Part shown: positions 4,063 to 57,392 of the stretch, in pieces
How positions within the stretch are numbered: the first letter of the stretch is position 1
Layout of the letters: each line of letters starts with the position of its first letter
DNA from: a virus
Length of the DNA stretch: 64,000 bases
Direction: 5' to 3' (one strand)
Virus genome (UHGV): UHGV-1493261
Made by a program: the position numbers and the translations under genes
Notes under the pieces: model-generated
The model's input: only the letters and a program-made list of their open reading frames with translations
Database searches by the model: none
What the model was told of the DNA's origin: nothing

Positions 4063-4091
4063 TCCCCCTAAATACAGGGGGATTTCTTTTT
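4063..4091 (+). terminator. terminator hairpin TCCCCC-taaataca-GGGGGA + T-rich tail; loop carries a TAAATA late-promoter-like core (4067-4074)
   Basis: Inverted repeat plus TTTCTTTTT. Confidence 0.5.
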
Positions 4092-4105
4092 CTGAGGACA
4101 ACATC

Positions 4106-4459
4106 ATGGTCAATGCGAGTATTTTCATCAACCGTGGACTGCTTGCTATAGCCCACTCTCATGCCTTGCACTTCGTTACAACGTCCTATGCCAAGCACAA
4201 GGCACTCGGGGAGTTCTACGGGGATCTAGAGGACTTGCTGGACACGTTTACCGAAGCATACATCGGTGCAGGTGGTCAGTATGTTCCATCATTCGAGAAT
4301 ATCAAATTGTACAACCCAGACCCTATCTCCTATATTAACAGTGTGGTGATAGACGTCGATGGCATCTACAAGCAGTGTGACTCCCACCTTCAGAGCACTC
4401 TTGACGATATCAAGACACTGTGCTATCAGACGATCTACAAACTGAAGCAGCTGTCGTAA
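4106..4459 (+). CDS. hypothetical protein (117 aa)
   Basis: ATG at 4106 with GAGG 9 nt upstream; the track start at 4046 lies inside the terminator hairpin and is unlikely. Confidence 0.5.
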   Translation: MVNASIFINRGLLAIAHSHALHFVTTSYAKHKALGEFYGDLEDLLDTFTEAYIGAGGQYVPSFENIKLYNPDPISYINSVVIDVDGIYKQCDSHLQSTLDDIKTLCYQTIYKLKQLS

Positions 4460-7731: not shown

Positions 7732-7765
7732 CGGGGGAGGTGACTCCCCTCCTTTCAGGTTTTTG
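7732..7765 (+). terminator. imperfect GC hairpin followed by TTTCAGGTTTTT
   Basis: GGGGGAGG/CCCCTCC arms with a bulge, then T-rich tail. Confidence 0.4.
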
Positions 7766-7967: not shown

Positions 7968-8164
7968 AACTGACTCTAGATCAGTTGGCCAGAGCCTCTT
8001 GCGCCCATCTCAAAGAAGTGACGGGTAAAGTATGGACACCATCCGTAATCACTTCTGCTGGGATGATCATGCTAACATCTGAGTCTTCCGTTCTGACTCT
8101 GTTTTATAGGGAACGAGAAGGTAGTTGGGCAGCTCGGCCTAGTGACAAAACCAAAGAAGAGTGA
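7964..8164 (+). CDS. small hypothetical protein
   Basis: ORF coupled to the upstream stop. Confidence 0.35.
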   Translation: MKLTLDQLARASCAHLKEVTGKVWTPSVITSAGMIMLTSESSVLTLFYREREGSWAARPSDKTKEE

Positions 8165-8275
8165 ATCCGCTGTTGGTGCTTATAACGCCATGAAGCGTGA
8201 CTTTGGTCCGATGATAGCCAAGTACAACACCATGCTGGAATCTATGTAGTCTCAACCCCTATGAGAGGAAACAAA

Positions 8276-8578
8276 ATGTTACACGGCAGCGAACAATCAA
8301 CCAAGATCGCAAAAGATGCAGCTCAGCAATTGGAAGCCCATACCTCCAAGGAATGGAAGGTCGTGGGTAACTCATTCTCTCAAATCACTCTGATGAACGG
8401 GAACGTCTACGTCGACCACCTGATTTCTACTGGTGCTTGGCGAGCAGGGATTCAGGATTTCTGGATCGAAGACCTCGCTGGCGAGTACCTGAGTTCTCCG
8501 ATTGAGGCTTATGACAGCCTGAAAGTCGCTGTCAAAGAACATCTGAAAGAACTTCAAGAAGTTTCAGACAGTCTGTAG
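8276..8578 (+). CDS. hypothetical protein (100 aa)
   Basis: ATG at 8276 with GAGAGGAA upstream. Confidence 0.4.
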   Translation: MLHGSEQSTKIAKDAAQQLEAHTSKEWKVVGNSFSQITLMNGNVYVDHLISTGAWRAGIQDFWIEDLAGEYLSSPIEAYDSLKVAVKEHLKELQEVSDSL

Positions 8579-8606
8579 TACCGCAATTCCTCAAGTTCAC
8601 TTTCAC

Positions 8607-8639
8607 TTTAAATACCTCTGCATTCATTGTGGAGGTATT
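8607..8639 (+). promoter_or_regulatory. late-promoter-like TTTAAATA (8607-8614) overlapping the 5' arm of a hairpin (8611-8619 / 8631-8639) whose 3' arm contains the endolysin SD GGAGG
   Basis: AATACCTCT pairs with GGAGGTATT; the ATG at 8644 follows. Confidence 0.45.
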
Positions 8640-8643
8640 TCTT

Positions 8644-9438
8644 ATGGCCATTCTAAAACTTGGCAACCGTGGCACTGAAGTGAAGGCACTTCAGAATAGC
8701 CTCAACAAAATCGGCTTCACCCTCGTCGCTGATGGTATCTTTGGCAAGGCAACAGAGAACGCTGTCAAGACTGTTCAGGCGGGTGCGGGGCTTGTCATTG
8801 ATGGTATCGTGGGTCCAAAGACCTCCTATGCTATTCGCAACGCCGGAGACGCCCATCAGGATCATCTAACTGAGTCAGACCTGATTGATGCTGCTAACGA
8901 TCTGGGTGTTGACCTCGCCTCTGTCAAGGCGGTGAATCAGGTTGAGTCACGCGGTACGGGCTTCACCAAGTCAGGTAAGATCAAGACATTGTTTGAGCGC
9001 CACATCATGTATAAGAAGCTGACGGCGAAGTTCGGGCAGGCTCGGGCGAATGCCATGGGACATATGTACCCGACGTTGGTCAGCCCTTCCGCAGGCGGGT
9101 ACACGGGTGGCGACGCGGAGTTGGATCGACTTCATGCAGCGATCAACATCGACGAGGATTGTGCGTACGAGAGTGCCTCATACGGCCTCTTTCAGATCAT
9201 GGGCTTCAACTGCCAGGTCTGTGGGTATGCCAACGCCAAGGAGATGTTCAACGACTTCCTGACAGGCGAACGCGCTCATTTGATGGCATTCGTGAAGTTC
9301 ATCAAGGCTGACGCCAAGCTCTGGCAGGCTCTGAAGGACAAGAACTGGGCTGAGTTTGCGCGGCGCTATAATGGTCCGGCATATGCCAAGAACCAGTACG
9401 ACACGAAGCTCGCTGCTGCATACCGCAGCTTCAGTTAA
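8644..9438 (+). CDS. endolysin: N-terminal peptidoglycan-binding domain plus muramidase-like catalytic domain
   Basis: PG-binding repeat LGNRGTEVKALQNSLNKIGF...DGIFGKATENAV; C-terminal region SYGLFQIMGFN. Confidence 0.7.
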   Translation: MAILKLGNRGTEVKALQNSLNKIGFTLVADGIFGKATENAVKTVQAGAGLVIDGIVGPKTSYAIRNAGDAHQDHLTESDLIDAANDLGVDLASVKAVNQVESRGTGFTKSGKIKTLFERHIMYKKLTAKFGQARANAMGHMYPTLVSPSAGGYTGGDAELDRLHAAINIDEDCAYESASYGLFQIMGFNCQVCGYANAKEMFNDFLTGERAHLMAFVKFIKADAKLWQALKDKNWAEFARRYNGPAYAKNQYDTKLAAAYRSFS

Positions 9439-9442
9439 CTCA

Positions 9443-9466
9443 AAGGCCGGAAACGGCCTTTTCTTT
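9443..9466 (+). terminator. terminator hairpin AGGCCG-gaaa-CGGCCT + TTTCTTT
   Basis: Perfect 6-bp stem plus T run after the stop at 9438. Confidence 0.6.
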
Positions 9467-9539
9467 ATCCAATCCTCAGGTATGCTGGGTTGTCACCTTA
9501 ATTAGAGGTGATGACACCCTGAGATATAGGAAGGTTCCC

Positions 9540-10382
9540 ATGCAATCTGCCACCAAAGTTGTAAGTAAGAAGCCAGCGGGCAAGACCAAGTCAGCACGTA
9601 AGAAGGAGACAATCCAGAAAGAAGATGACTGGATGAAGTTCTCTAAAGGTGACTTCAGAATCGCTCCGTTCAATGGCCTCTCAGAAAATCAGAACCTCGC
9701 GTATCAATCTGCTCTTGAAGAAAACCTCACCATCGCAATCGGTCCGGCAGGCACAGGTAAATCGTACTGTGGTGCCTCAGCCGCCGCCAAGCTCCTGATC
9801 GATAAAGTAGTCAGCAAGATCGTCATCACGCGCTCTCCGCTACCAACAGGCCAGACTGCAGGCTTCCGCCCTGGCGACACATACGAAAAGCTGATGCCAT
9901 ATCTGATGCCCCTGATTCAGACGCTGAAGAAGGTGCTGAAGACTGACACAGGTAGCGACGGTTTCTTCAACTATCTGTGGGAGAAGCGGATCATTGAGAT
10001 CCAGGATCTGGAGACCATCAAGGGGATGACCTTCGACGACACCTTCCTGATCATTGAAGAAGCGCAGGAATGTGATATGGAGCAACTGAAGAACCTACTG
10101 ACCCGCGCATCCGACTCGACTTACATCTTTGTCAACGGTGACATCAAACAGTCTAACAAGCGCCTGCGTGAAAGCGCCCTGGAAAAGTACGTCAGTTCCT
10201 TCCGCGACTTCAACACCAAGCTGGAGGCCGGAACCCTGAAGATCGATGGTGTTGGCGTCGGTGATGAGTACCCTGAATGGGTTCAACCGTTCAGTATCAT
10301 CGAGTTCGACAAGTCTGACCGCAACGGGCGCGGCGACTTCACCCGCCTGATGCTGGAAGTCAACGATCTGTACGACATTTAA
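9540..10382 (+). CDS. phoH: PhoH-like P-loop ATPase
   Basis: Walker A GPAGTGKS and overall PhoH-like layout. Confidence 0.75.
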   Translation: MQSATKVVSKKPAGKTKSARKKETIQKEDDWMKFSKGDFRIAPFNGLSENQNLAYQSALEENLTIAIGPAGTGKSYCGASAAAKLLIDKVVSKIVITRSPLPTGQTAGFRPGDTYEKLMPYLMPLIQTLKKVLKTDTGSDGFFNYLWEKRIIEIQDLETIKGMTFDDTFLIIEEAQECDMEQLKNLLTRASDSTYIFVNGDIKQSNKRLRESALEKYVSSFRDFNTKLEAGTLKIDGVGVGDEYPEWVQPFSIIEFDKSDRNGRGDFTRLMLEVNDLYDI

Positions 10383-10465
10383 GTAACTCGCCAACCCTCC
10401 CCGCCGCCTTCAATCTACGAGGGCGGCGTATAATAAAACCTGCGTAAACAAACCCGAGGAACACC

Positions 10466-12748
10466 ATGATTAACGTTATAAAACGTGACGGATCTTCTGT
10501 CCCATTTGATATTGAGAAACTACACGCAGTCGTAGACCGCGCATGTGATGGCTTGCCTGGTGTATCAATGTCAGAGGTGATCGCTGCATCGAAGATTCAG
10601 TTCACCGACAACATGAGAACAGATCGCATTCAGGATATCCTCATCCAGGCTGCAGCTTCACTGATCTCTGTAGAGAAACCCAACTACCAGTATGTGGCCG
10701 CTCGCCTGAAGTCATATGATCTGCGCAAGGCTGTCTATGGCCAGTACAAGCCGCCTCACCTGCTGGATATCTTCGTCAAGAACATCAAACAGCGCGTGTA
10801 TGATCGTGAGTTCCTTGATCTCTACACGACCGAAGAGTTCAACGAACTGAACGATGTTATCAACCACAAACGTGACAAGAACTTCACCTGGGCGGCCATG
10901 GGTCAGCTGACAGAGAAGTATCTGCTGCGTGACCGTTCCAAGAAGGACAGCAAGATCTTCTACGAAACCCCTCAGGTCATGTACATGGGCATCGCCATGG
11001 CGTTGTTCTCTAACTGGGACAGAGACAGCCGCCTGGAAATGGTTAAGAAGTTCTATGAATATGCCAGCACAGGCAAGTTCAGTCTTCCAACCCCGATTAT
11101 GGCAGGCGTTCGTACTCCTACCCGTCAGTTCAGTTCCTGCGTGTTAATCAAGACTGATGACACCCTGAACTCTATCAACGCAACAGCCAAGACCATCGTT
11201 GACTATGTGTCCAAACGTGCGGGTATCGGCTTCGACGTCGGGGCTATCCGTGGGATTGGTAGTCCTATTCGCGGCGGAGAAATGGTTCACACAGGCCTGA
11301 TCCCGTTCATCAAGTACCTCACTGGCGCACTGAAGTCGTGCTCTCAGGGCGGCATTCGTGGTGGTGCGGCAACAGCATACATCCCTCTGTGGCATTACCA
11401 GTTCGATGACGTCGTTGTTCTGAAGAACAACCGTGGTACTGAAGAAAACCGCGAACGCCGTATCGACTATGGCATTCAGATCAACCGCGTGATGTTTGAG
11501 CGCCTGGTTGCCAAGCAGCCTCTGTATCTGTTCGACCCGAAAGACAACCGCGAAATGTATGAAGCATACTTCGCTGACGTTGACAAGTTCCGTACTCTGT
11601 ATGAGAACATGATCAAGGCCGCTGATGCTGGTTTGGTTCGTGCTAAAAAGTTGCAGGCAGAAGAGGTGTTCCAGATGCTGTTAGACCAGCGTTCAGACAC
11701 AGGCCGCATCTACATCGCATTTGTCGATCACATGAATGAATACAGTCCATTCAACCTAGACACGATTTATTCTTCAAATCTTTGTTTAGAAATCGCCCTG
11801 CCGACCCGTGAGTTTGAGCAGTACAACGATGAAAACGGGCGCGTGGCTCTGTGCACCCTGGCTTCCTTCAACCTGACAGCGTTCGAAGATCCTACGGAAA
11901 TGGAAGACGTGGCGTTCGTGTTGGTGTCTGCGCTGGACATGCTGTTGGAATATCAGGACTATCCAGCGATTCAGGCTCGTAAAGCTGTTGAAGACTATCG
12001 TCCTCTGGGTGTTGGTATCGTGAACGTGGCTCACTTCCTGGCCAAGAACTTCACGGGTTATGGCTCACCAGCTGGTCTTGAAATGCTGGATGCGTGGATG
12101 GCACACCTGCACTTCTATCTGGTCAAGGCGTCCAACCGTCTGGCTATGAAGTTCGGTGCTTGCAAACGCAGAACCATCCACAATAATGGGCAGGTCACCG
12201 CCGACCTTCAGCCGCTTCCACTTGATATCCTACCAAATGGCAAGAAGCCGGAAGGGATGGCATACGGGCTGGATTGGGATGAGTTGAAGGATAATCTGAA
12301 GACCTATGGTATCCGCAACGCCACTCTGCTGGCAGTAGCCCCTACCGAAAGCTCCTCACAGGTCCTCAACGCAACGAACGGTATTGAGCCACCGAAGGGC
12401 TTGGTGAGCATCAAGGGTAGCAAGGACGGCACTTATAAGCAGGTCGTCCCGGACGTTGAGACCCTTGGACCGATGTATGACCTCAAGTGGGACCTGGACT
12501 GTATTGAGTACCTGAAGACCGCTGCTGTCATCCAGCGCTGGGTTGACCAGTCCATCAGTACCAACACGTGGTATGACCCAGAGAAGTACCCTGACAGCAA
12601 GATCCCTCGCGCCAAGATGATGCAGGATATCCTGTCGTTCTATATGTGGGGTGGCAAGACTCTGTATTACAACACAAACAAGGACGCCAAGGAAGACGAA
12701 GAGCTGAAGCAGGCTGAGGAAACTCAGTGCGATAGCTGTGTTGTATAA
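10466..12748 (+). CDS. nrdA: ribonucleotide reductase class Ia large subunit
   Basis: ATP-cone N-terminus; active-site stretch SSNLCLEIALPT...ALCTLASFNL; C-terminal CDSC. Confidence 0.9.
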   Translation: MINVIKRDGSSVPFDIEKLHAVVDRACDGLPGVSMSEVIAASKIQFTDNMRTDRIQDILIQAAASLISVEKPNYQYVAARLKSYDLRKAVYGQYKPPHLLDIFVKNIKQRVYDREFLDLYTTEEFNELNDVINHKRDKNFTWAAMGQLTEKYLLRDRSKKDSKIFYETPQVMYMGIAMALFSNWDRDSRLEMVKKFYEYASTGKFSLPTPIMAGVRTPTRQFSSCVLIKTDDTLNSINATAKTIVDYVSKRAGIGFDVGAIRGIGSPIRGGEMVHTGLIPFIKYLTGALKSCSQGGIRGGAATAYIPLWHYQFDDVVVLKNNRGTEENRERRIDYGIQINRVMFERLVAKQPLYLFDPKDNREMYEAYFADVDKFRTLYENMIKAADAGLVRAKKLQAEEVFQMLLDQRSDTGRIYIAFVDHMNEYSPFNLDTIYSSNLCLEIALPTREFEQYNDENGRVALCTLASFNLTAFEDPTEMEDVAFVLVSALDMLLEYQDYPAIQARKAVEDYRPLGVGIVNVAHFLAKNFTGYGSPAGLEMLDAWMAHLHFYLVKASNRLAMKFGACKRRTIHNNGQVTADLQPLPLDILPNGKKPEGMAYGLDWDELKDNLKTYGIRNATLLAVAPTESSSQVLNATNGIEPPKGLVSIKGSKDGTYKQVVPDVETLGPMYDLKWDLDCIEYLKTAAVIQRWVDQSISTNTWYDPEKYPDSKIPRAKMMQDILSFYMWGGKTLYYNTNKDAKEDEELKQAEETQCDSCVV

Positions 12749-12780
12749 ATTGGTCTAAACCTACTACCGTTATATCATCA

Positions 12781-12803
12781 GGGGTGAGAGATCACCCCTT
12801 ATT
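12781..12803 (+). terminator. hairpin GGGGTGA-gaga-TCACCCC between nrdA and nrdB (weak T tail)
   Basis: Perfect 7-bp stem; tail TTATT only. Confidence 0.35.
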
Positions 12804-12818
12804 AATCAGGAAAGAAAC

Positions 12819-13922
12819 ATGAGCGAACAGAAACAATTCTCCGTATTCGACCCAAGCTCGGACAACACTGGTCTACCGTTCTTCGGTGACCCAGTGAGCA
12901 TCCAGCGTTACGATGTCGTGGCCTGGCCATTCGTACAGAAGTGGTATGAGAAAGGTCTCAGTCAATTCTGGCGTCCTGAAGAGGTGGACATCACCAAGGA
13001 CAAGGCAGACTTCGCTACTCTGAACGAAGCAGAGAAACATGTCTACTTCAGCAACCTGAAGCGCCAGACCATGCTGGACTCTATCCAGGGTGCGGCTCCG
13101 TTCGAGGCGTTTGGTCCATGGGCGTCTACCCCTGAAATGCAGTTTGCTGTCCTTGAATGGACGCGCCAGGAAGCCATTCACTCTTTATCGTACACCCACA
13201 TTTTGCGCAATACTGTGAACGATCCAGGTATCGTGTTTGACCACGTACTGGATGTTGTGGAGATCGTGGACTGTGCTCACCAGATCAGTGTGTACTACGA
13301 TGACATGGTACAGTACAGTGGCATGCGTATGGCCGGACGCATCTTCACCCGAGAAGATCTGATGAATGCCAAACGCGCATTCTGGCGTGCTCTGTTTGCT
13401 GCCAACACACTGGAAGGCATCCGCTTCTACGTGTCCTTTGCATGCTCTTGGGCATTCACACAGTTCCAGAAGAAGATGGAAGGCAATGCCAAAATCATTC
13501 GACAGATCGCCCGTGATGAGCAGGATCACCTGATCCTGACCCAGACGCTGCTAAACCGCCTGCCTGGTATGGACCCCGACTTTGCAATCATCCGTGAGGA
13601 ACTGCGTGGTGAGATGACCCAGATGTTCCTGGACGTGGTCCATCAGGAGAAGGAGTGGGCGAACTACCTATTCAAAGACGGTTCCATCCTGGGGCTGAAC
13701 GCCAAGATCCTTCATCAGATGGTAGACTGGCTGGCAACCCACCGGATGGGCGCTATCGGGCACCCATATCCCGGTGAACCTCGCAAGGAGAACCCAGTCC
13801 CATGGATTAATGACTGGCTAGATAATAAGGCAATGCAGTACGCGTTGCAGGAAGCGGAAGCTCCTGATTATCTGATGGGTGTACTGACTGGTTCGGTATC
13901 CGATGGCCTCAAATTCGCTTAA
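12819..13922 (+). CDS. nrdB: ribonucleotide reductase class Ia small subunit
   Basis: Di-iron/tyrosyl-radical family pattern (EAIHSLSY, RDEQDHL). Confidence 0.85.
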   Translation: MSEQKQFSVFDPSSDNTGLPFFGDPVSIQRYDVVAWPFVQKWYEKGLSQFWRPEEVDITKDKADFATLNEAEKHVYFSNLKRQTMLDSIQGAAPFEAFGPWASTPEMQFAVLEWTRQEAIHSLSYTHILRNTVNDPGIVFDHVLDVVEIVDCAHQISVYYDDMVQYSGMRMAGRIFTREDLMNAKRAFWRALFAANTLEGIRFYVSFACSWAFTQFQKKMEGNAKIIRQIARDEQDHLILTQTLLNRLPGMDPDFAIIREELRGEMTQMFLDVVHQEKEWANYLFKDGSILGLNAKILHQMVDWLATHRMGAIGHPYPGEPRKENPVPWINDWLDNKAMQYALQEAEAPDYLMGVLTGSVSDGLKFA

Positions 13923-13931
13923 AGGTGAGAA

Positions 13932-14156
13932 ATGATTACGATCTATTCCAAACAAGGTTGCGCTCAGTGTGTAACAGCCGAAAATCTGTGCAAAATGAAA
14001 GGGCTGGAACACAAGATCCTCAAGCTGGACAAAGATTACCGGCTGGAAGAACTTCAGCAGTTGACGGGTAAGCCGCGCGTGTCGATGCCTGTAATCGTCC
14101 TCGCTGACCAGACCGTGACCGACGTTAATGGACTCGCCGCCAGCCTTAAACGCTGA
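13932..14156 (+). CDS. glutaredoxin/NrdH-like redoxin (74 aa)
   Basis: CAQC redox motif near the N-terminus; sits directly after nrdB. Confidence 0.6.
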   Translation: MITIYSKQGCAQCVTAENLCKMKGLEHKILKLDKDYRLEELQQLTGKPRVSMPVIVLADQTVTDVNGLAASLKR

Positions 14157-14164
14157 CAAGCCAA

Positions 14165-14185
14165 AGCCCCTCATTGAGGGGCTTT
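14165..14185 (+). terminator. terminator hairpin AGCCCCTC-att-GAGGGGCT
   Basis: Perfect 8-bp stem. Confidence 0.55.
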
Positions 14186-14211
14186 ACTTCTATAATCCCT
14201 GCGCTTATACT
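14183..14211 (+). promoter_or_regulatory. sigma70-like early promoter: -35 TTTACT, 17-nt spacer, -10 TATACT
   Basis: Same architecture as 468-496. Confidence 0.5.
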
Positions 14212-14241
14212 TCCCAGTAATTCATTGGCATTCGCCACAAA

Positions 14242-14265
14242 TTGAAAGCGGGAACTATATCATGA
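14242..14265 (+). promoter_or_regulatory. Conserved translation-initiation box TTGAAAGCGGGAACTATATCATGA
   Basis: Near-identical to 524-548. Confidence 0.4.
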
Positions 14266-14723
14266 CAAACAAAGTACTCACCAACCCACTGCACAACTTC
14301 GGTTACATTCAACTCCCTCTGGTGATCGACACCCTGTACGCCGACGACAAAGAAGAGATCTGCTGGTCACCCACCGCACTGATTGAACGCGAAATCTTCA
14401 AGTCTGTTGTTGATGTCATGTTCCGTATCGGTCGCAATGGACCTCTGGTCTACCTCGGCAAGGTGACTGAGTTGAAGACAAGCCACAACGAACGCTTCCT
14501 TCGTATCGATACAACGGGGTGCTCTCAGCAGGACTTCAACACACTACGTAACTATGTACTGATCAACCGTCCGGTCAGCCAGCACCGCCCGTACCTGACG
14601 TCAATGCACATCGACAATTTCATCACCGACGTGCACCTCCGCGCCGAAACCCTTCATGAAGAGGAAACAGGCCGAGCTATCGACACAGTCTTAAATATGG
14701 TTGTGATCACCCTGGCGGAGTAG
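14262..14723 (+). CDS. hypothetical early protein (153 aa)
   Basis: ORF preceded by the promoter cassette. Confidence 0.5.
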   Translation: MTNKVLTNPLHNFGYIQLPLVIDTLYADDKEEICWSPTALIEREIFKSVVDVMFRIGRNGPLVYLGKVTELKTSHNERFLRIDTTGCSQQDFNTLRNYVLINRPVSQHRPYLTSMHIDNFITDVHLRAETLHEEETGRAIDTVLNMVVITLAE

Positions 14724-14728
14724 TCCTC

Positions 14729-15079
14729 ATGCAAGATTACAAAGAGCTGAGCATGCAGCTGGCAGTCCCCATACCCGACAAAGATTTATACCAGAACCTG
14801 CATCATCTGATGTCTGAAGGACACATGCTGTCATTGCAGTCTGAGGATGGAACTCAGATCGGTTATGCCACCAGTTGCGTGGTCTACGACAAACCAGGAG
14901 ACGAAGAGCGCGGACAGGTCAGTGTGGGTTCCAGATTTGTGTTGAACAAGAAGCTGGAGGGATCAGTGGTTGACGTCAGGCCGATGATTATCCTCTACCA
15001 CTTCAACGGTAAAGAGATGTTCAGGTTATTGAGCCACTTCATGTTAGTCGTGGCTCCGGCATTCAGGACGAAATTCTAA
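14729..15079 (+). CDS. hypothetical protein (116 aa)
   Basis: ORF. Confidence 0.45.
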   Translation: MQDYKELSMQLAVPIPDKDLYQNLHHLMSEGHMLSLQSEDGTQIGYATSCVVYDKPGDEERGQVSVGSRFVLNKKLEGSVVDVRPMIILYHFNGKEMFRLLSHFMLVVAPAFRTKF

Positions 15080-15456
15080 TTCGTCCTTTTCAACCACACG
15101 GTGTCTGTTATTGGATCTGGATTGTTGACCACATAGAATGTGATGGTAACGCCCAGAGAATGGTAATCCTCTGACAGACTCACCGTGACTTCTTCTACCT
15201 CTGCTCTGGGTTCATACAGGGCGATAGCGTCCTCTACTTTGTTCCTCACGTCTACCTGGATAGTCGGTGTCGTGTTTTCGCCCAGCAGCCCATAAAGCCC
15301 CGCGCCGATCCCAGGATAAGTAGGCCAATCCCCAACCGAAGACATGACGATATTCCGCACGGATTGTAAGACAGCATACACACCTGATTTCATGGTGACA
15401 TCTTTGGTCACCGGATGCATGCCGAACTTCAGATCGACATCTTTATACTCTTTCAT
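15076..15456 (-). CDS. 25: baseplate wedge protein, T4 gp25-like
   Basis: Matches my recollection of T4 gp25 (PGIGAGL..LLGE, YEPR, NPDPI). Confidence 0.75.
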   Translation of the reverse strand: MKEYKDVDLKFGMHPVTKDVTMKSGVYAVLQSVRNIVMSSVGDWPTYPGIGAGLYGLLGENTTPTIQVDVRNKVEDAIALYEPRAEVEEVTVSLSEDYHSLGVTITFYVVNNPDPITDTVWLKRTN

Positions 15457-15529
15457 TTCGCGATCCTCTCAGGATGCCTATAAGGAGCAGAGAGACGTGC
15501 TGCCCCTCTGCCACCAAACTTATACCAAC

Positions 15530-17140
15530 TTACTCTTTGGTGCCGAAATTACCACCATTGTCTTTTAATTCTGCCTTGATGTCAATCTCACCCGGACCCG
15601 TAGGGGATGCAGGGGTTGCACCTGACAGAGAAGAAGCGCGACCAGCACCTTCGGCATATATGATGTTACCATTGATCGTCTGAGCGACAGTCAGTTTGTC
15701 AGCGATTATCTCAGTCGTTAGAATCTTAGGAACCTTCAATGTCCCGCCGACCTCCAGAGTCTCGCAGATAATGCGCAGAATATTCTGCGCTTGCATTTCC
15801 GCTAGGTCACTGAATTTCATCAGCGCTGTGCCCGCAACCACATTTGAGTAGTTGTTGGAATGCAAATGATAGACCTCACCTGTCTTGCGCTGAACTTCAG
15901 TTCCTTTGACCGTCAGGTTGTGGTCCCCGCCGACATAATAACGCTTGTTGAACATCGTCAGGTCATAGTGGTCTTTGACGGACTTGTTGACCACATCACC
16001 ATCCGGCAACATTTGCTTGTAAGACCCAGACTTATGCATCCAATGAAGACGTTCACCACCAGGGGTGTCATCCACTTCCATAATATGCCCAGCTCGGGAC
16101 ACCATGACGTTATTGTACGGGTATTTGGAGCCACCCGCAGCCGGAACTATGGTCTCTCCAGTGTTGTCAATATCCCGCACTCGCCCAGTGGGAGCCGGAG
16201 TCGGTTGTTCCTTTGGAGTACGATCTGGGATAGGTTCTGACCATTTACCATTCTGCTGAGCAGGCAAGGCTGTGGCTGTGTTAGCAGGACCAGGCCAACG
16301 ATACCCCAAGACCGAAGAACGTCTGAAACGACTGACCTTCACTGAATCGGATTGGTTGCCACCAATACACCAGACATAGTTTTCATCGAACTTCTGTACA
16401 AACGCCACGTGTCCAAATGTAGGGTTGTTACCACGCCGGAAGACTACGATAGCACCATATTGTGGTGCTGACAGTGGAGTGCCCCATGTAAGGTAAGATC
16501 GGGCAAGAGCGGAGCGTGTAGACGTGTATCCAGCCTGTATCATAACCCAACCCACGAACGCCGCACACCACGACACTTCATCTTCAGAAGCACCAAGGGA
16601 GGTTGTCTTGTGATATTCTATAATGCGCGGGTTGTTGTTGAACTTTCCGGCATACTCCTTGATACCCAATTCGCCACGAGCGATTGTCATCCACTTCTCT
16701 GGATCATACCCACCAACAGGTGGTTGTGGATCTGGTTGTGGTTCGTCTTCTTGTTTCACAGGAACGTCAGTGACAGCGTTGTACGCCTGACGTTCTACAG
16801 ATTGAACGACCTGCCCGAGAGCCAGCGGGTTTGTGTCGGCGCCATCAGTAGGGCTTGAACCAGTCCAAGTCCAGGTGATGCGTAAATTCTGGTATGCTTC
16901 GTCAAGGGCGAACCCCATAACCTCAGTGCCAGGAATGATACCCGTTGGAGACCAACCTAAACCAGCAGAGGAGGCATTTGAAGCAGGCATCAGTACCTTC
17001 GCCCATGGGAGTTTGTCTGTAGGCAGGAGGACGGGATCGTCGGTGTGTACGCCATATATGCGGACGGCGACGCGCCCGTTTTGGTCTGGATCGTTGACAT
17101 CTTCAACGGTGCCGTAAAACCATCTCATATTGTCTAACAT
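15530..17140 (-). CDS. 5: baseplate central spike: gp5-like N-terminal OB domain fused to a CHAP peptidase/amidase domain
   Basis: N-terminus WFYGTVEDVNDPDQNGRVAVRIYGVH...LPWAKVL; CHAP Cys (SWCAAFVGWV) and His (GHVAFV). Confidence 0.7.
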   Translation of the reverse strand: MLDNMRWFYGTVEDVNDPDQNGRVAVRIYGVHTDDPVLLPTDKLPWAKVLMPASNASSAGLGWSPTGIIPGTEVMGFALDEAYQNLRITWTWTGSSPTDGADTNPLALGQVVQSVERQAYNAVTDVPVKQEDEPQPDPQPPVGGYDPEKWMTIARGELGIKEYAGKFNNNPRIIEYHKTTSLGASEDEVSWCAAFVGWVMIQAGYTSTRSALARSYLTWGTPLSAPQYGAIVVFRRGNNPTFGHVAFVQKFDENYVWCIGGNQSDSVKVSRFRRSSVLGYRWPGPANTATALPAQQNGKWSEPIPDRTPKEQPTPAPTGRVRDIDNTGETIVPAAGGSKYPYNNVMVSRAGHIMEVDDTPGGERLHWMHKSGSYKQMLPDGDVVNKSVKDHYDLTMFNKRYYVGGDHNLTVKGTEVQRKTGEVYHLHSNNYSNVVAGTALMKFSDLAEMQAQNILRIICETLEVGGTLKVPKILTTEIIADKLTVAQTINGNIIYAEGAGRASSLSGATPASPTGPGEIDIKAELKDNGGNFGTKE

Positions 17141-17174
17141 ATTGAGTTCCGGTTGTCAAACAAGGATTTGAAGG

Positions 17175-17182
17175 TATTTATG
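17175..17182 (-). promoter_or_regulatory. late-promoter-like CATAAATA, 35 nt upstream of the gp5-like start
   Basis: Minus-strand read of 17175-17182. Confidence 0.35.
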
Positions 17183-17481
17183 CGCAGCTGATTTTGCCTT
17201 ATATACTATAGGAAGCTCTGCTTCCGTTCATTTTATTTGTTTTATTCGATCCTATTCGCTTCGCTCATCAAACCGCCCTATGCGGGCAGCACCATTCCAA
17301 TGCCATGGAGGCATAAGGGCGAGGCAATAACTGTACACCCCAGAACACTCCTTGAAAAATGGTATTTTACTGACAATCTGATTCAAAACAAACAAACACC
17401 AACAAATGACTCGGGAACAAGCCCATTATAGCAATTTCAGGTAAAGAGAGTGCGTGTTAACCGATTTTACAGTTAAGCCAA

Positions 17482-17505
17482 TAAAAATCCCGCCGAAGCG
17501 GGATT
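17482..17505 (-). terminator. terminator hairpin AATCCCGC-ttcg-GCGGGATT + TTTTT (minus strand)
   Basis: Perfect 8-bp stem plus T run downstream of the gene ending at 17653. Confidence 0.6.
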
Positions 17506-17652
17506 ACTGTTTCTTAGACAACCTGACCTTGAGGGCTTCGGTTAACAAGTCAAGATGCCATGGCATCGACTCGTTGATTTCAAATATGCTATAGCCGTGT
17601 AACTTCAATTCATCACACATCACGAAGTAGGATAATAAATCAGTTTCAAACA

Positions 17653-32402: not shown

Positions 32403-32420
32403 GCAATTCAATAAAGCGGG

Positions 32421-32443
32421 TCATAGGGTATAATTCTATGATC
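32421..32443 (+). other. hairpin TCATAG-ggtataatt-CTATGA with TATAAT in the loop
   Basis: Direct read. Confidence 0.4.
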
Positions 32444-42829: not shown

Positions 42830-42837
42830 CTTAAATA
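42830..42837 (+). promoter_or_regulatory. late-promoter-like CTTAAATA for the gp4-like gene
   Basis: 33 nt upstream of the ATG at 42870. Confidence 0.35.
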
Positions 42838-42853
42838 GATAGAGTGTTATGGC

Positions 42854-42861
42854 TATTTAGG
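42854..42861 (-). promoter_or_regulatory. late-promoter-like CCTAAATA (minus strand) for the gene starting at 42819
   Basis: 35 nt upstream of the minus-strand ATG. Confidence 0.3.
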
Positions 42862-57203: not shown

Positions 57204-57392
57204 GTTTGGTTCTCCTATAGACTGTTACGTATTTACCACAGCAATTGCAACAGTATACGTGCATCGCGTATCCTTCGCCTGTGAAGTCGCAACCACCACA
57301 GCGACAGAACAATTTCACGAACTGTTGGTCATGAACTTCACGGGGAGGAAAGTTCTTGTGGGAGTATTCCCTGGTCTCGCCTTCGAACTGAA

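Follow-up and report, generated by a model that had tools for sequence, protein, structure and literature searches.

In the phage genome UHGV-1493261, analyzed here as a stretch of 64,000 nucleotides (nt) of DNA (the window), the endolysin gene is preceded by a leader hairpin that buries its ribosome-binding site. This leader is read, with a probability of roughly 0.6, as a temporal gate of the type known from phage T4 gene e, in which RNA entering from upstream would be silenced, and perhaps partly terminated, while RNA initiated at a late promoter within the hairpin would be translated. On that reading the leader is a new case of a known T4-type gate, to which a second gated gene, encoding a RuvC-like resolvase, and a late-promoter core are added. 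An original prediction, made from the letters of the sequence, had proposed the gate at the endolysin gene, and the hairpin that it described was confirmed as real, with the element TTTAAATA, both arms, the Shine-Dalgarno (SD) sequence and the spacer all located as reported. Its interpretation is supported for every sequence-level element, although it missed the U-rich tract and the corresponding terminator published for phage AG3, the full 13-bp extent of the helix, and the resolvase gene.

The leader sequence around the hairpin is CACTTTAAATACCTCTGCATTCATTGTGGAGGTATTTCTTATGGCC. Segments AATACCTCT (8611-8619) and GGAGGTATT (8631-8639) form eight Watson-Crick pairs and one G.U pair (T8619.G8631), as had been predicted, but the nine pairs originally described are only part of the helix, which upon folding extended to 13 pairs, 8610-8622 with 8628-8640. 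The SD sequence GGAGG (8631-8635) is separated by an 8-nt spacer from the ATG at 8644-8646, and the nine nucleotides directly 5' of this ATG include six T residues, the joint second highest number among predicted genes. The 92-nt leader has a minimum free energy of -21 kcal/mol (z = -3.7); 200 dinucleotide shuffles gave -12.0 +/- 2.4, and not one of them folded as well. A search of positions 8000-20500, both strands, with the Rfam 15 covariance models yielded no match up to E = 1. A GTG at 8629 was considered as the endolysin start and rejected in favor of the ATG at 8644, which an SD sequence precedes by 8 nt and which annotations of relatives give as the start.

Folding of early-length and late-length leaders revealed a large difference in the accessibility of the SD sequence. 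In RNAs beginning at 8400, 8500, 8579 or 8600, GGAGGU opens at a cost of 14.8-15.5 kcal/mol, and the unpaired probability of the SD bases is at most 0.008, in agreement with the claim that the SD is buried 8 nt before the start codon. In RNAs beginning at 8618-8622, which lack the 5' arm, this cost is 2.5-3.4 kcal/mol and the SD is left open, again as proposed. By computation, the initiation region is thus sequestered in upstream-initiated RNA, as in a T4 gene-e-type leader, and it ranks as the second most occluded of the 95 predicted in the window (16.8 kcal/mol versus a median of 4.7, standard deviation 2.9). The same calculation for T4 gene e gave 13.6-14.5 kcal/mol in the long RNA and 0.9-3.5 in the late RNA, which, along with the near-identical arms described below, upholds the proposed likeness to the T4 arrangement. 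Among the 12 genes led by TAAATA, the long-minus-late difference exceeds 13 kcal/mol only for the endolysin (13.5) and the resolvase (13.9).

The claim that the 5' arm overlaps a late-promoter-like element was also borne out: TTTAAATA was read at 8607-8614, and its core, TAAATA (8609-8614), runs into the 5' arm (8610-8622). A test of every hexamer at positions -50 to -20 of 96 predicted starts, scored by binomial p, ranked TAAATA first, with 12 of its 15 window copies in this interval (p = 1e-17), followed by the sigma-70 box TATAAT (9 of 34 copies). These 12 copies sit 30-44 nt 5' of a start codon, and the hexamer precedes homologues of the T4 late genes gp5 (17140, - strand), gp54 (23259, -), gp2 (23313, +), gp48 (42819, -) and gp4 (42870, +). 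Only position relative to starts is informative, as the total TAAATA count is at the chance level (15 versus 14.2 expected), and exact copies of the T4 consensus TATAAATA (two) and of TTTAAATA (one) are likewise at chance in the window. The GenBank record of phage LIMEstone1 labels the orthologous TAAATA a "putative late promoter." The late-transcription machinery is represented in the window by a gp33-type coactivator gene (Table 1); the gp55 and gp45 genes lie outside it, and homologues of gp55, gp33 and gp45 have been reported in AG3, CBA120 and ViI (PMC3121705, PMC3184105). According to the CBA120 paper of 2011, the late-promoter sequence of this phage group had not yet been identified; judged from its placement before genes, the Ackermannviridae group very probably uses nnTAAATA as its late -10 core. 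A sigma-70 promoter at the site was rejected, with TAAATA matching TATAAT at three of six positions and no -35 element at the right spacing. In T4, about one helical turn separates the late TATA box from the transcription start downstream of it (PMC2988020), and by this spacing transcription from the endolysin element is predicted to begin near 8620.

Directly 5' of the promoter core lies a conserved non-coding block, CCTCAAGTTCACTTTCACTT, which contains a tandem CACTTT, occurs once in the window and, in one fold of the RNA from 8400, pairs with endolysin codons 11-14. This block is nearly invariant across genera, though T4-type late promoters require no upstream element. Elsewhere in the window, the divergent late pairs gp2/gp54 (23275-23299) and gp4/gp48 (42832-42859) carry back-to-back TAAATA boxes 15-21 nt apart as an inverted repeat, which would partly occlude the initiation regions in long RNAs, the difference being 8-9 kcal/mol for gp48 and gp4.

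Conservation was assessed in 19 unique Ackermannviridae loci from IMG/VR, with endolysins 83-98% identical, and in two Miltonvirus phages; by endolysin identity, the 19 loci appear to include Agtrevirus-, Limestonevirus-, Kuttervirus- and Taipeivirus-like phages. The hairpin is retained in all 19 and in both Miltonvirus phages, and the TAAATA box is invariant throughout. Upstream genes differ among the relatives while the leader is kept, with homology beginning at about 8585-8594. Across the 19 unique sequences, column identity over 8594-8643 is 0.85-1.0, equivalent to the conservation of codon positions 1 and 2 (0.93 and 0.97; position 3, 0.71). Variation is limited to the loop (TACAT, ATCAC and AACAT occur while the stem is kept), to a T insertion in the tail, and to three stem positions at which C-G, U-G and G-U interchange. 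These three positions still pair in six of seven haplotypes, and 98.9% of stem cells overall are paired, the lone exception type being an A.G mismatch in haplotype L007. Because G.U pairs are present in every haplotype, the helix can work only as + strand RNA, the form on which selection acts. MAFFT did not align the Miltonvirus leader or the resolvase indels in register with the structure, and these were compared by eye and by per-sequence folding. The leader of the Miltonvirus Serratia phage 3M (endolysin 61% identical), ATAAATACCCTCTG-atataccaa-CAGAGGGTTTTTCATTATG, keeps TAAATA, the anti-SD arm, the SD arm and the ATG, but differs in its stem, which has an extra C:G pair involving both arms, and in its loop and upstream sequence. 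Long and late RNAs differ in every relative (13.6-19.3 versus 2.9-5.8 kcal/mol). The leader is absent from more distant PF11860 endolysins of other phage types (loci L022, L023 and L045-L047). In the closest relative (L003, IMGVR_UViG_3300045988_107072; endolysin 98% identical), a TATAAT box at about 1428-1433 lies approximately 35 nt upstream of TAAATA, and sigma-70 transcription from this box would yield RNA with the complete hairpin.

The same design recurs at the resolvase gene, which is predicted to be gated in the same way. Its leader, GTAAATAGCCCATA...TATGGGCTATTTAC-ATG, folds into a hairpin whose 3' arm stops one base short of the ATG (z = -3.0; 0 of 200 shuffles as good), and its initiation region is the most occluded in the window, with an opening cost of 18.8 kcal/mol in the long RNA versus 4.8 in the late RNA. 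Relatives display compensatory changes in this stem: a G:C pair is gained or lost jointly on both arms, and locus L041 has U-A in place of an A-U pair.

The proposed mechanism would operate as follows, with the late start site, the existence of read-through RNA and the effect on translation being inferred. RNA originating upstream of 8610 would fold the 13-bp hairpin and pair the SD GGAGG with the anti-SD strand, so that ribosome initiation at the ATG would be blocked, and a fraction of this RNA may stop at the U-rich tract (8636-8643). The gp55-type late promoter, with its core at 8609-8614, would overlap the 5' arm, and once the late sigma/gp33/clamp machinery became active, transcription would start near 8620, inside the hairpin. 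Since the late RNA would lack the 5' arm, it would form neither the occluding helix nor the terminator and would, thus, be translated; it would end at 9442-9461. Endolysin would then be produced only late in infection.

Table 1. Features of the endolysin and resolvase leaders and associated genes in the window.
Feature	Position	Strand	Basis or detail
Conserved non-coding block CCTCAAGTTCACTTTCACTT, directly 5' of promoter core	8589..8608	+	Leader comparison with relatives
Late-promoter-like -10 element TTTAAATA, core TAAATA 8609-8614	8607..8614	+	Read directly; hexamer enrichment; invariant in relatives
Hairpin 5' arm, anti-SD, overlaps promoter core	8610..8622	+	AAATACCTCTGCA; folding
Predicted late transcription start, about 8620	8618..8622	+	From T4 spacing
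Hairpin loop TTCAT	8623..8627	+	Folding
Hairpin 3' arm TGTGGAGGTATTT, holds SD GGAGGT 8631-8636	8628..8640	+	Read directly and folded
U-rich spacer TATTTCTT, SD to ATG; could serve as terminator U-tract	8636..8643	+	T-tail score 3.8-4.9
Endolysin gene	8644..9438	+	264 amino acids; PG_binding_1 and N-acetylmuramidase PF11860 (Pfam, PHROGs, annotated relatives)
Terminator-like hairpin directly 3' of endolysin stop	9442..9461	+	AAAGGCCGGAAACGGCCTTT then TCTTTATCC
Twin module: TAAATA 19510-19515 in 5' arm 19509-19522; 3' arm 19540-19553	19509..19553	+	Folding; 14-bp hairpin
RuvC-like Holliday junction resolvase gene	19554..20144	+	phrog_159, E = 1.7e-53; Pfam RuvC, 23.2 bits versus cut-off 22.2
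gp33-type late-transcription coactivator gene	20680..20925	+	PF16805 Trans_coact, E = 8.5e-18

Several observations weigh against the gate, and some of them suggest other explanations. Among these, the main role of the hairpin might be rho-independent termination of RNA from the variable upstream genes, which would stop before the ATG. Its G+C core is bordered by an A-tract and a U-tract, and on this view the late promoter happens to overlap it and burial of the SD is a by-product of tight packing. Table S2 of the AG3 (phiSboM-AG3) paper lists the hairpin as terminator Torf098 (57235..57266, ccttcgcattcattgcggaggtattttcttat, -12.2 kcal/mol). The U-rich tail of the window, UAUUUCUU, scores 3.8 (range 3.8-4.9), compared with 3.6-3.8 for clear terminators of the window. 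Because of this tail and the AG3 listing, SD occlusion may be secondary. The core stem CCUCUGCA/UGUGGAGG has a folding energy of -9.7 kcal/mol (-11.6 in relatives), terminator-like hairpins of the window having -10 to -13; in Miltonvirus, GAGGG precedes TTTTTCATT; and promoter boxes lie inside terminator hairpins elsewhere in the genome (4064-4093, 21186, 26186, 32418). A terminator feature also adjoins the site in the LIMEstone1 record. This feature (L001 1574-1601; HE600015 54223-54250) is placed directly 3' of the SD hairpin, within the start of the endolysin coding sequence, and its coordinates may be a slip, the hairpin itself having been meant. Nevertheless, a consensus terminator scan of the window did not call the endolysin hairpin, the core stem of the window phage carries two G.U pairs, and the near-identical T4 e hairpin acts experimentally as a translational block on read-through RNA and not as a terminator (PMC3014915). 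Furthermore, an SD sequence serving as the 3' arm, conserved over five genera, is unnecessary for termination, and the anti-initiation design recurs at the resolvase, so that the pair matches the two translationally gated genes of T4. A role mainly in termination is, thus, an unlikely explanation, if one that deserves serious consideration. Termination and SD occlusion are in any case compatible rather than mutually exclusive; they lead to the same biological outcome, a promoter within the 5' arm escapes both, and the two probably cooperate at the endolysin leader.

Other points concern the promoter and the origin of the helix. The element TTTAAATA departs from the T4 consensus TATAAATA, and the bases 3' of the box are G+C-richer than the AT-rich sequences typical of T4 late promoters. 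The literature searched holds no 5'-end, 3'-end or translation data, transcriptome or transcription start site map for any Ackermannviridae phage, and no transcript mapping of this site. These points would fit a model in which TAAATA 8609 is unused as a promoter and all mRNA carries the hairpin, as a constant brake on translation or an RNA-stability element with no switch. Such a model is quite improbable, because 12 of 15 TAAATA copies lie 30-44 nt before starts, some of them starts of known late genes, because every relative, Miltonvirus included, has the box unchanged, and because an SD that takes about 15 kcal/mol to open would leave almost no translation to be tuned (compare the 100-fold effect in T4; PMC3014915). 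With respect to the helix, both arms are under independent constraint, the promoter on one and the SD on the other, and no pair shows a two-sided change in the close family, 10 of 13 pairs being constant and three varying on one side, while the shuffle control for this comparison was uninformative. A promoter whose last bases are AAATA might, then, pair by coincidence with an SD and its T-rich spacer, without selection for a helix. Against so scarcely credible a coincidence stand the failure of any of 200 shuffles to fold as well, the occlusion rank of second among 95, the pairing of variable stem positions in six of seven haplotypes, the same architecture with a different stem in Miltonvirus, and the true compensatory changes of the resolvase twin. 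Finally, a sequence scan recognized no promoter between a terminator at 7733-7755, located in a terminator scan of the window, and the endolysin hairpin, a result that bears on how much read-through RNA would reach the endolysin gene. The gene-e-type gate is preferred over these explanations at the probability given above, and no earlier description of such an endolysin gate in Ackermannviridae was found in the literature searched.

The window phage belongs to the Ackermannviridae (ViI-like, Aglimvirinae), with best DNA matches to Escherichia phages YX22, AV101 and RPN242 at approximately 96%. On the + strand, primase (5781), small variable open reading frames (ORFs), endolysin, phoH (9540), nrdA (10466) and nrdB (12819) follow one another, and the endolysin gene sits inside this co-oriented cluster of early/middle type. 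The hairpin at its 3' end, 9442-9461, would end a single-gene late transcription unit. Shigella phage Ag3 (FJ373894 55551-57301) has a homing endonuclease gene, orf096, between endolysin and phoH, an insertion that the window lacks. Within the endolysin coding sequence, at codons ~11-17, a perfect 8-bp local hairpin, CTGAAGTG-aagg-CACTTCAG (8675-8694, + strand), may be incidental to the protein sequence.

Hairpins that combine promoter boxes with terminator-like stems were observed at several other places on the + strand. At 4064-4093, TAAATA (4069-4074) lies in the loop of a terminator-like CCCCCT-AAATAC-AGGGGG followed by ATTTCTTTTTCT, 31 nt before an ORF at 4106 resembling MobD.6 and a "starvation-inducible regulator," and the orthologous hairpin is listed in the AG3 paper as Torf105; a terminator and a late promoter seem to overlap here. 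TATAAT occurs in the loops of terminator-like hairpins at 21186-21203 (CGGGGTATAATTACCCCG), 26186-26216 (GGGCTGCTATAATAGCAGCTCC then TTTTGTTTT) and 32418-32443 (GGGTCATAGGGTATAATTCTATGATC), repeated terminator/early-promoter cassettes that are reminiscent of the promoter/stem-loop cassettes of T4-type phages.

If correct, these findings extend the classic control of T4 lysozyme to another phage family and to unrelated enzymes. They suggest a general rule for phages with gp55-type late transcription, namely that genes harmful early in infection, for lysis or the cutting of branched DNA, carry a late promoter within a hairpin that occludes the ribosome-binding site or terminates transcription. 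They also offer TAAATA as a working late-promoter core for the Ackermannviridae, reinterpret the published "terminator" Torf098 of AG3, and provide a compact part for late-only expression that could help the engineering of these widely used biocontrol phages. Regarding origin, it is conceivable, though doubtful, that a portable three-in-one late gate, consisting of terminator, gp55 promoter and anti-SD strand, is older than the genes it controls and descends from a common ancestor of Straboviridae and Ackermannviridae, the lysis and resolvase enzymes having been replaced beneath it. T4 lysozyme versus the PG_binding/PF11860 muramidase, and endonuclease VII versus the RuvC-like resolvase, would then be non-homologous replacements under one gate. 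Alternatively, the gate may have evolved twice, since a given promoter and SD leave little freedom in the sequence of either arm; the evidence fits inheritance and convergence alike.

Like the published Torf098, the window hairpin has a G+C core stem between an A-tract and a U-tract and lies 32 nt past the upstream stop. It differs from a simple terminator in that the SD of the following gene makes up its 3' arm, its A-tract is the late-promoter sequence, and RNA from the late promoter cannot form the hairpin. An arrangement of the Torf098 kind resembles the promoter/stem-loop cassettes of T4-type phages.

The closest counterpart is T4 gene e, whose leader, TTTTATAAATACCTTCTATAAATACTTAGGAGGTATTATG, includes TATAAATACCTTC...GGAGGTATTATG. 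McPheeters et al. reportedly described this leader in 1986 as a hairpin that sequesters the ribosome-binding site and holds internal late promoters. A review states that the structure has been demonstrated, that it cuts lysozyme synthesis 100-fold, that RNA made from the late promoters has no 5' strand, and that the distant T4-type phages Aeh1, 44RR, 25 and 31 have gene e without the structure (PMC3014915). In both systems, a lysis-enzyme gene lies among co-oriented early genes, the hairpin has the SD sequence GGAGGT as its 3' arm and a 5' arm that begins within the late -10 box, and the computed SD opening costs nearly agree between the two systems, both for long and for late RNA. LIMEstone1 and the Kuttervirus relatives have exactly the arms of T4, AATACCTTC/GGAGGTATT, from which the window differs at two adjacent bases (CT for TC). 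Because TAAATA and complementarity to GGAGG(T) fix nearly every arm base, this identity would not by itself prove common descent. The two leaders also differ in several respects. The window enzyme, with PG_binding_1 and a PF11860 muramidase domain, is not homologous to T4 lysozyme, and its phage belongs to the Ackermannviridae rather than the Straboviridae. There is one late box in the window versus two in T4, with the core TAAATA instead of the full TATAAATA; the loop is 5 nt and has no second promoter, whereas that of T4 is 12 nt; and the helix is 13 bp versus approximately 10. The window spacer is 8-9 nt and U-rich with a terminator-like tail, whereas in T4 the ATG directly follows the arm. 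Finally, the T4 structure was demonstrated experimentally, and that of the window leader is predicted from the sequence.

T4 gene 49 encodes endonuclease VII. Here, the RuvC-like resolvase has the same enzymatic role and, by this comparison, is a functional analogue of the gene 49 product, although the two proteins are not homologous. T4 gates gene e and gene 49 alike, and the parallel drawn for the resolvase rests on the same review (PMC3014915): the logic in both cases is that early or middle read-through RNA hides the initiation region in a helix, and that RNA begun at a late promoter has no 5' strand to pair with it. In the resolvase hairpin of the window, the whole TAAATA box pairs with TATTTA beside the ATG, and a strong SD sequence is absent.

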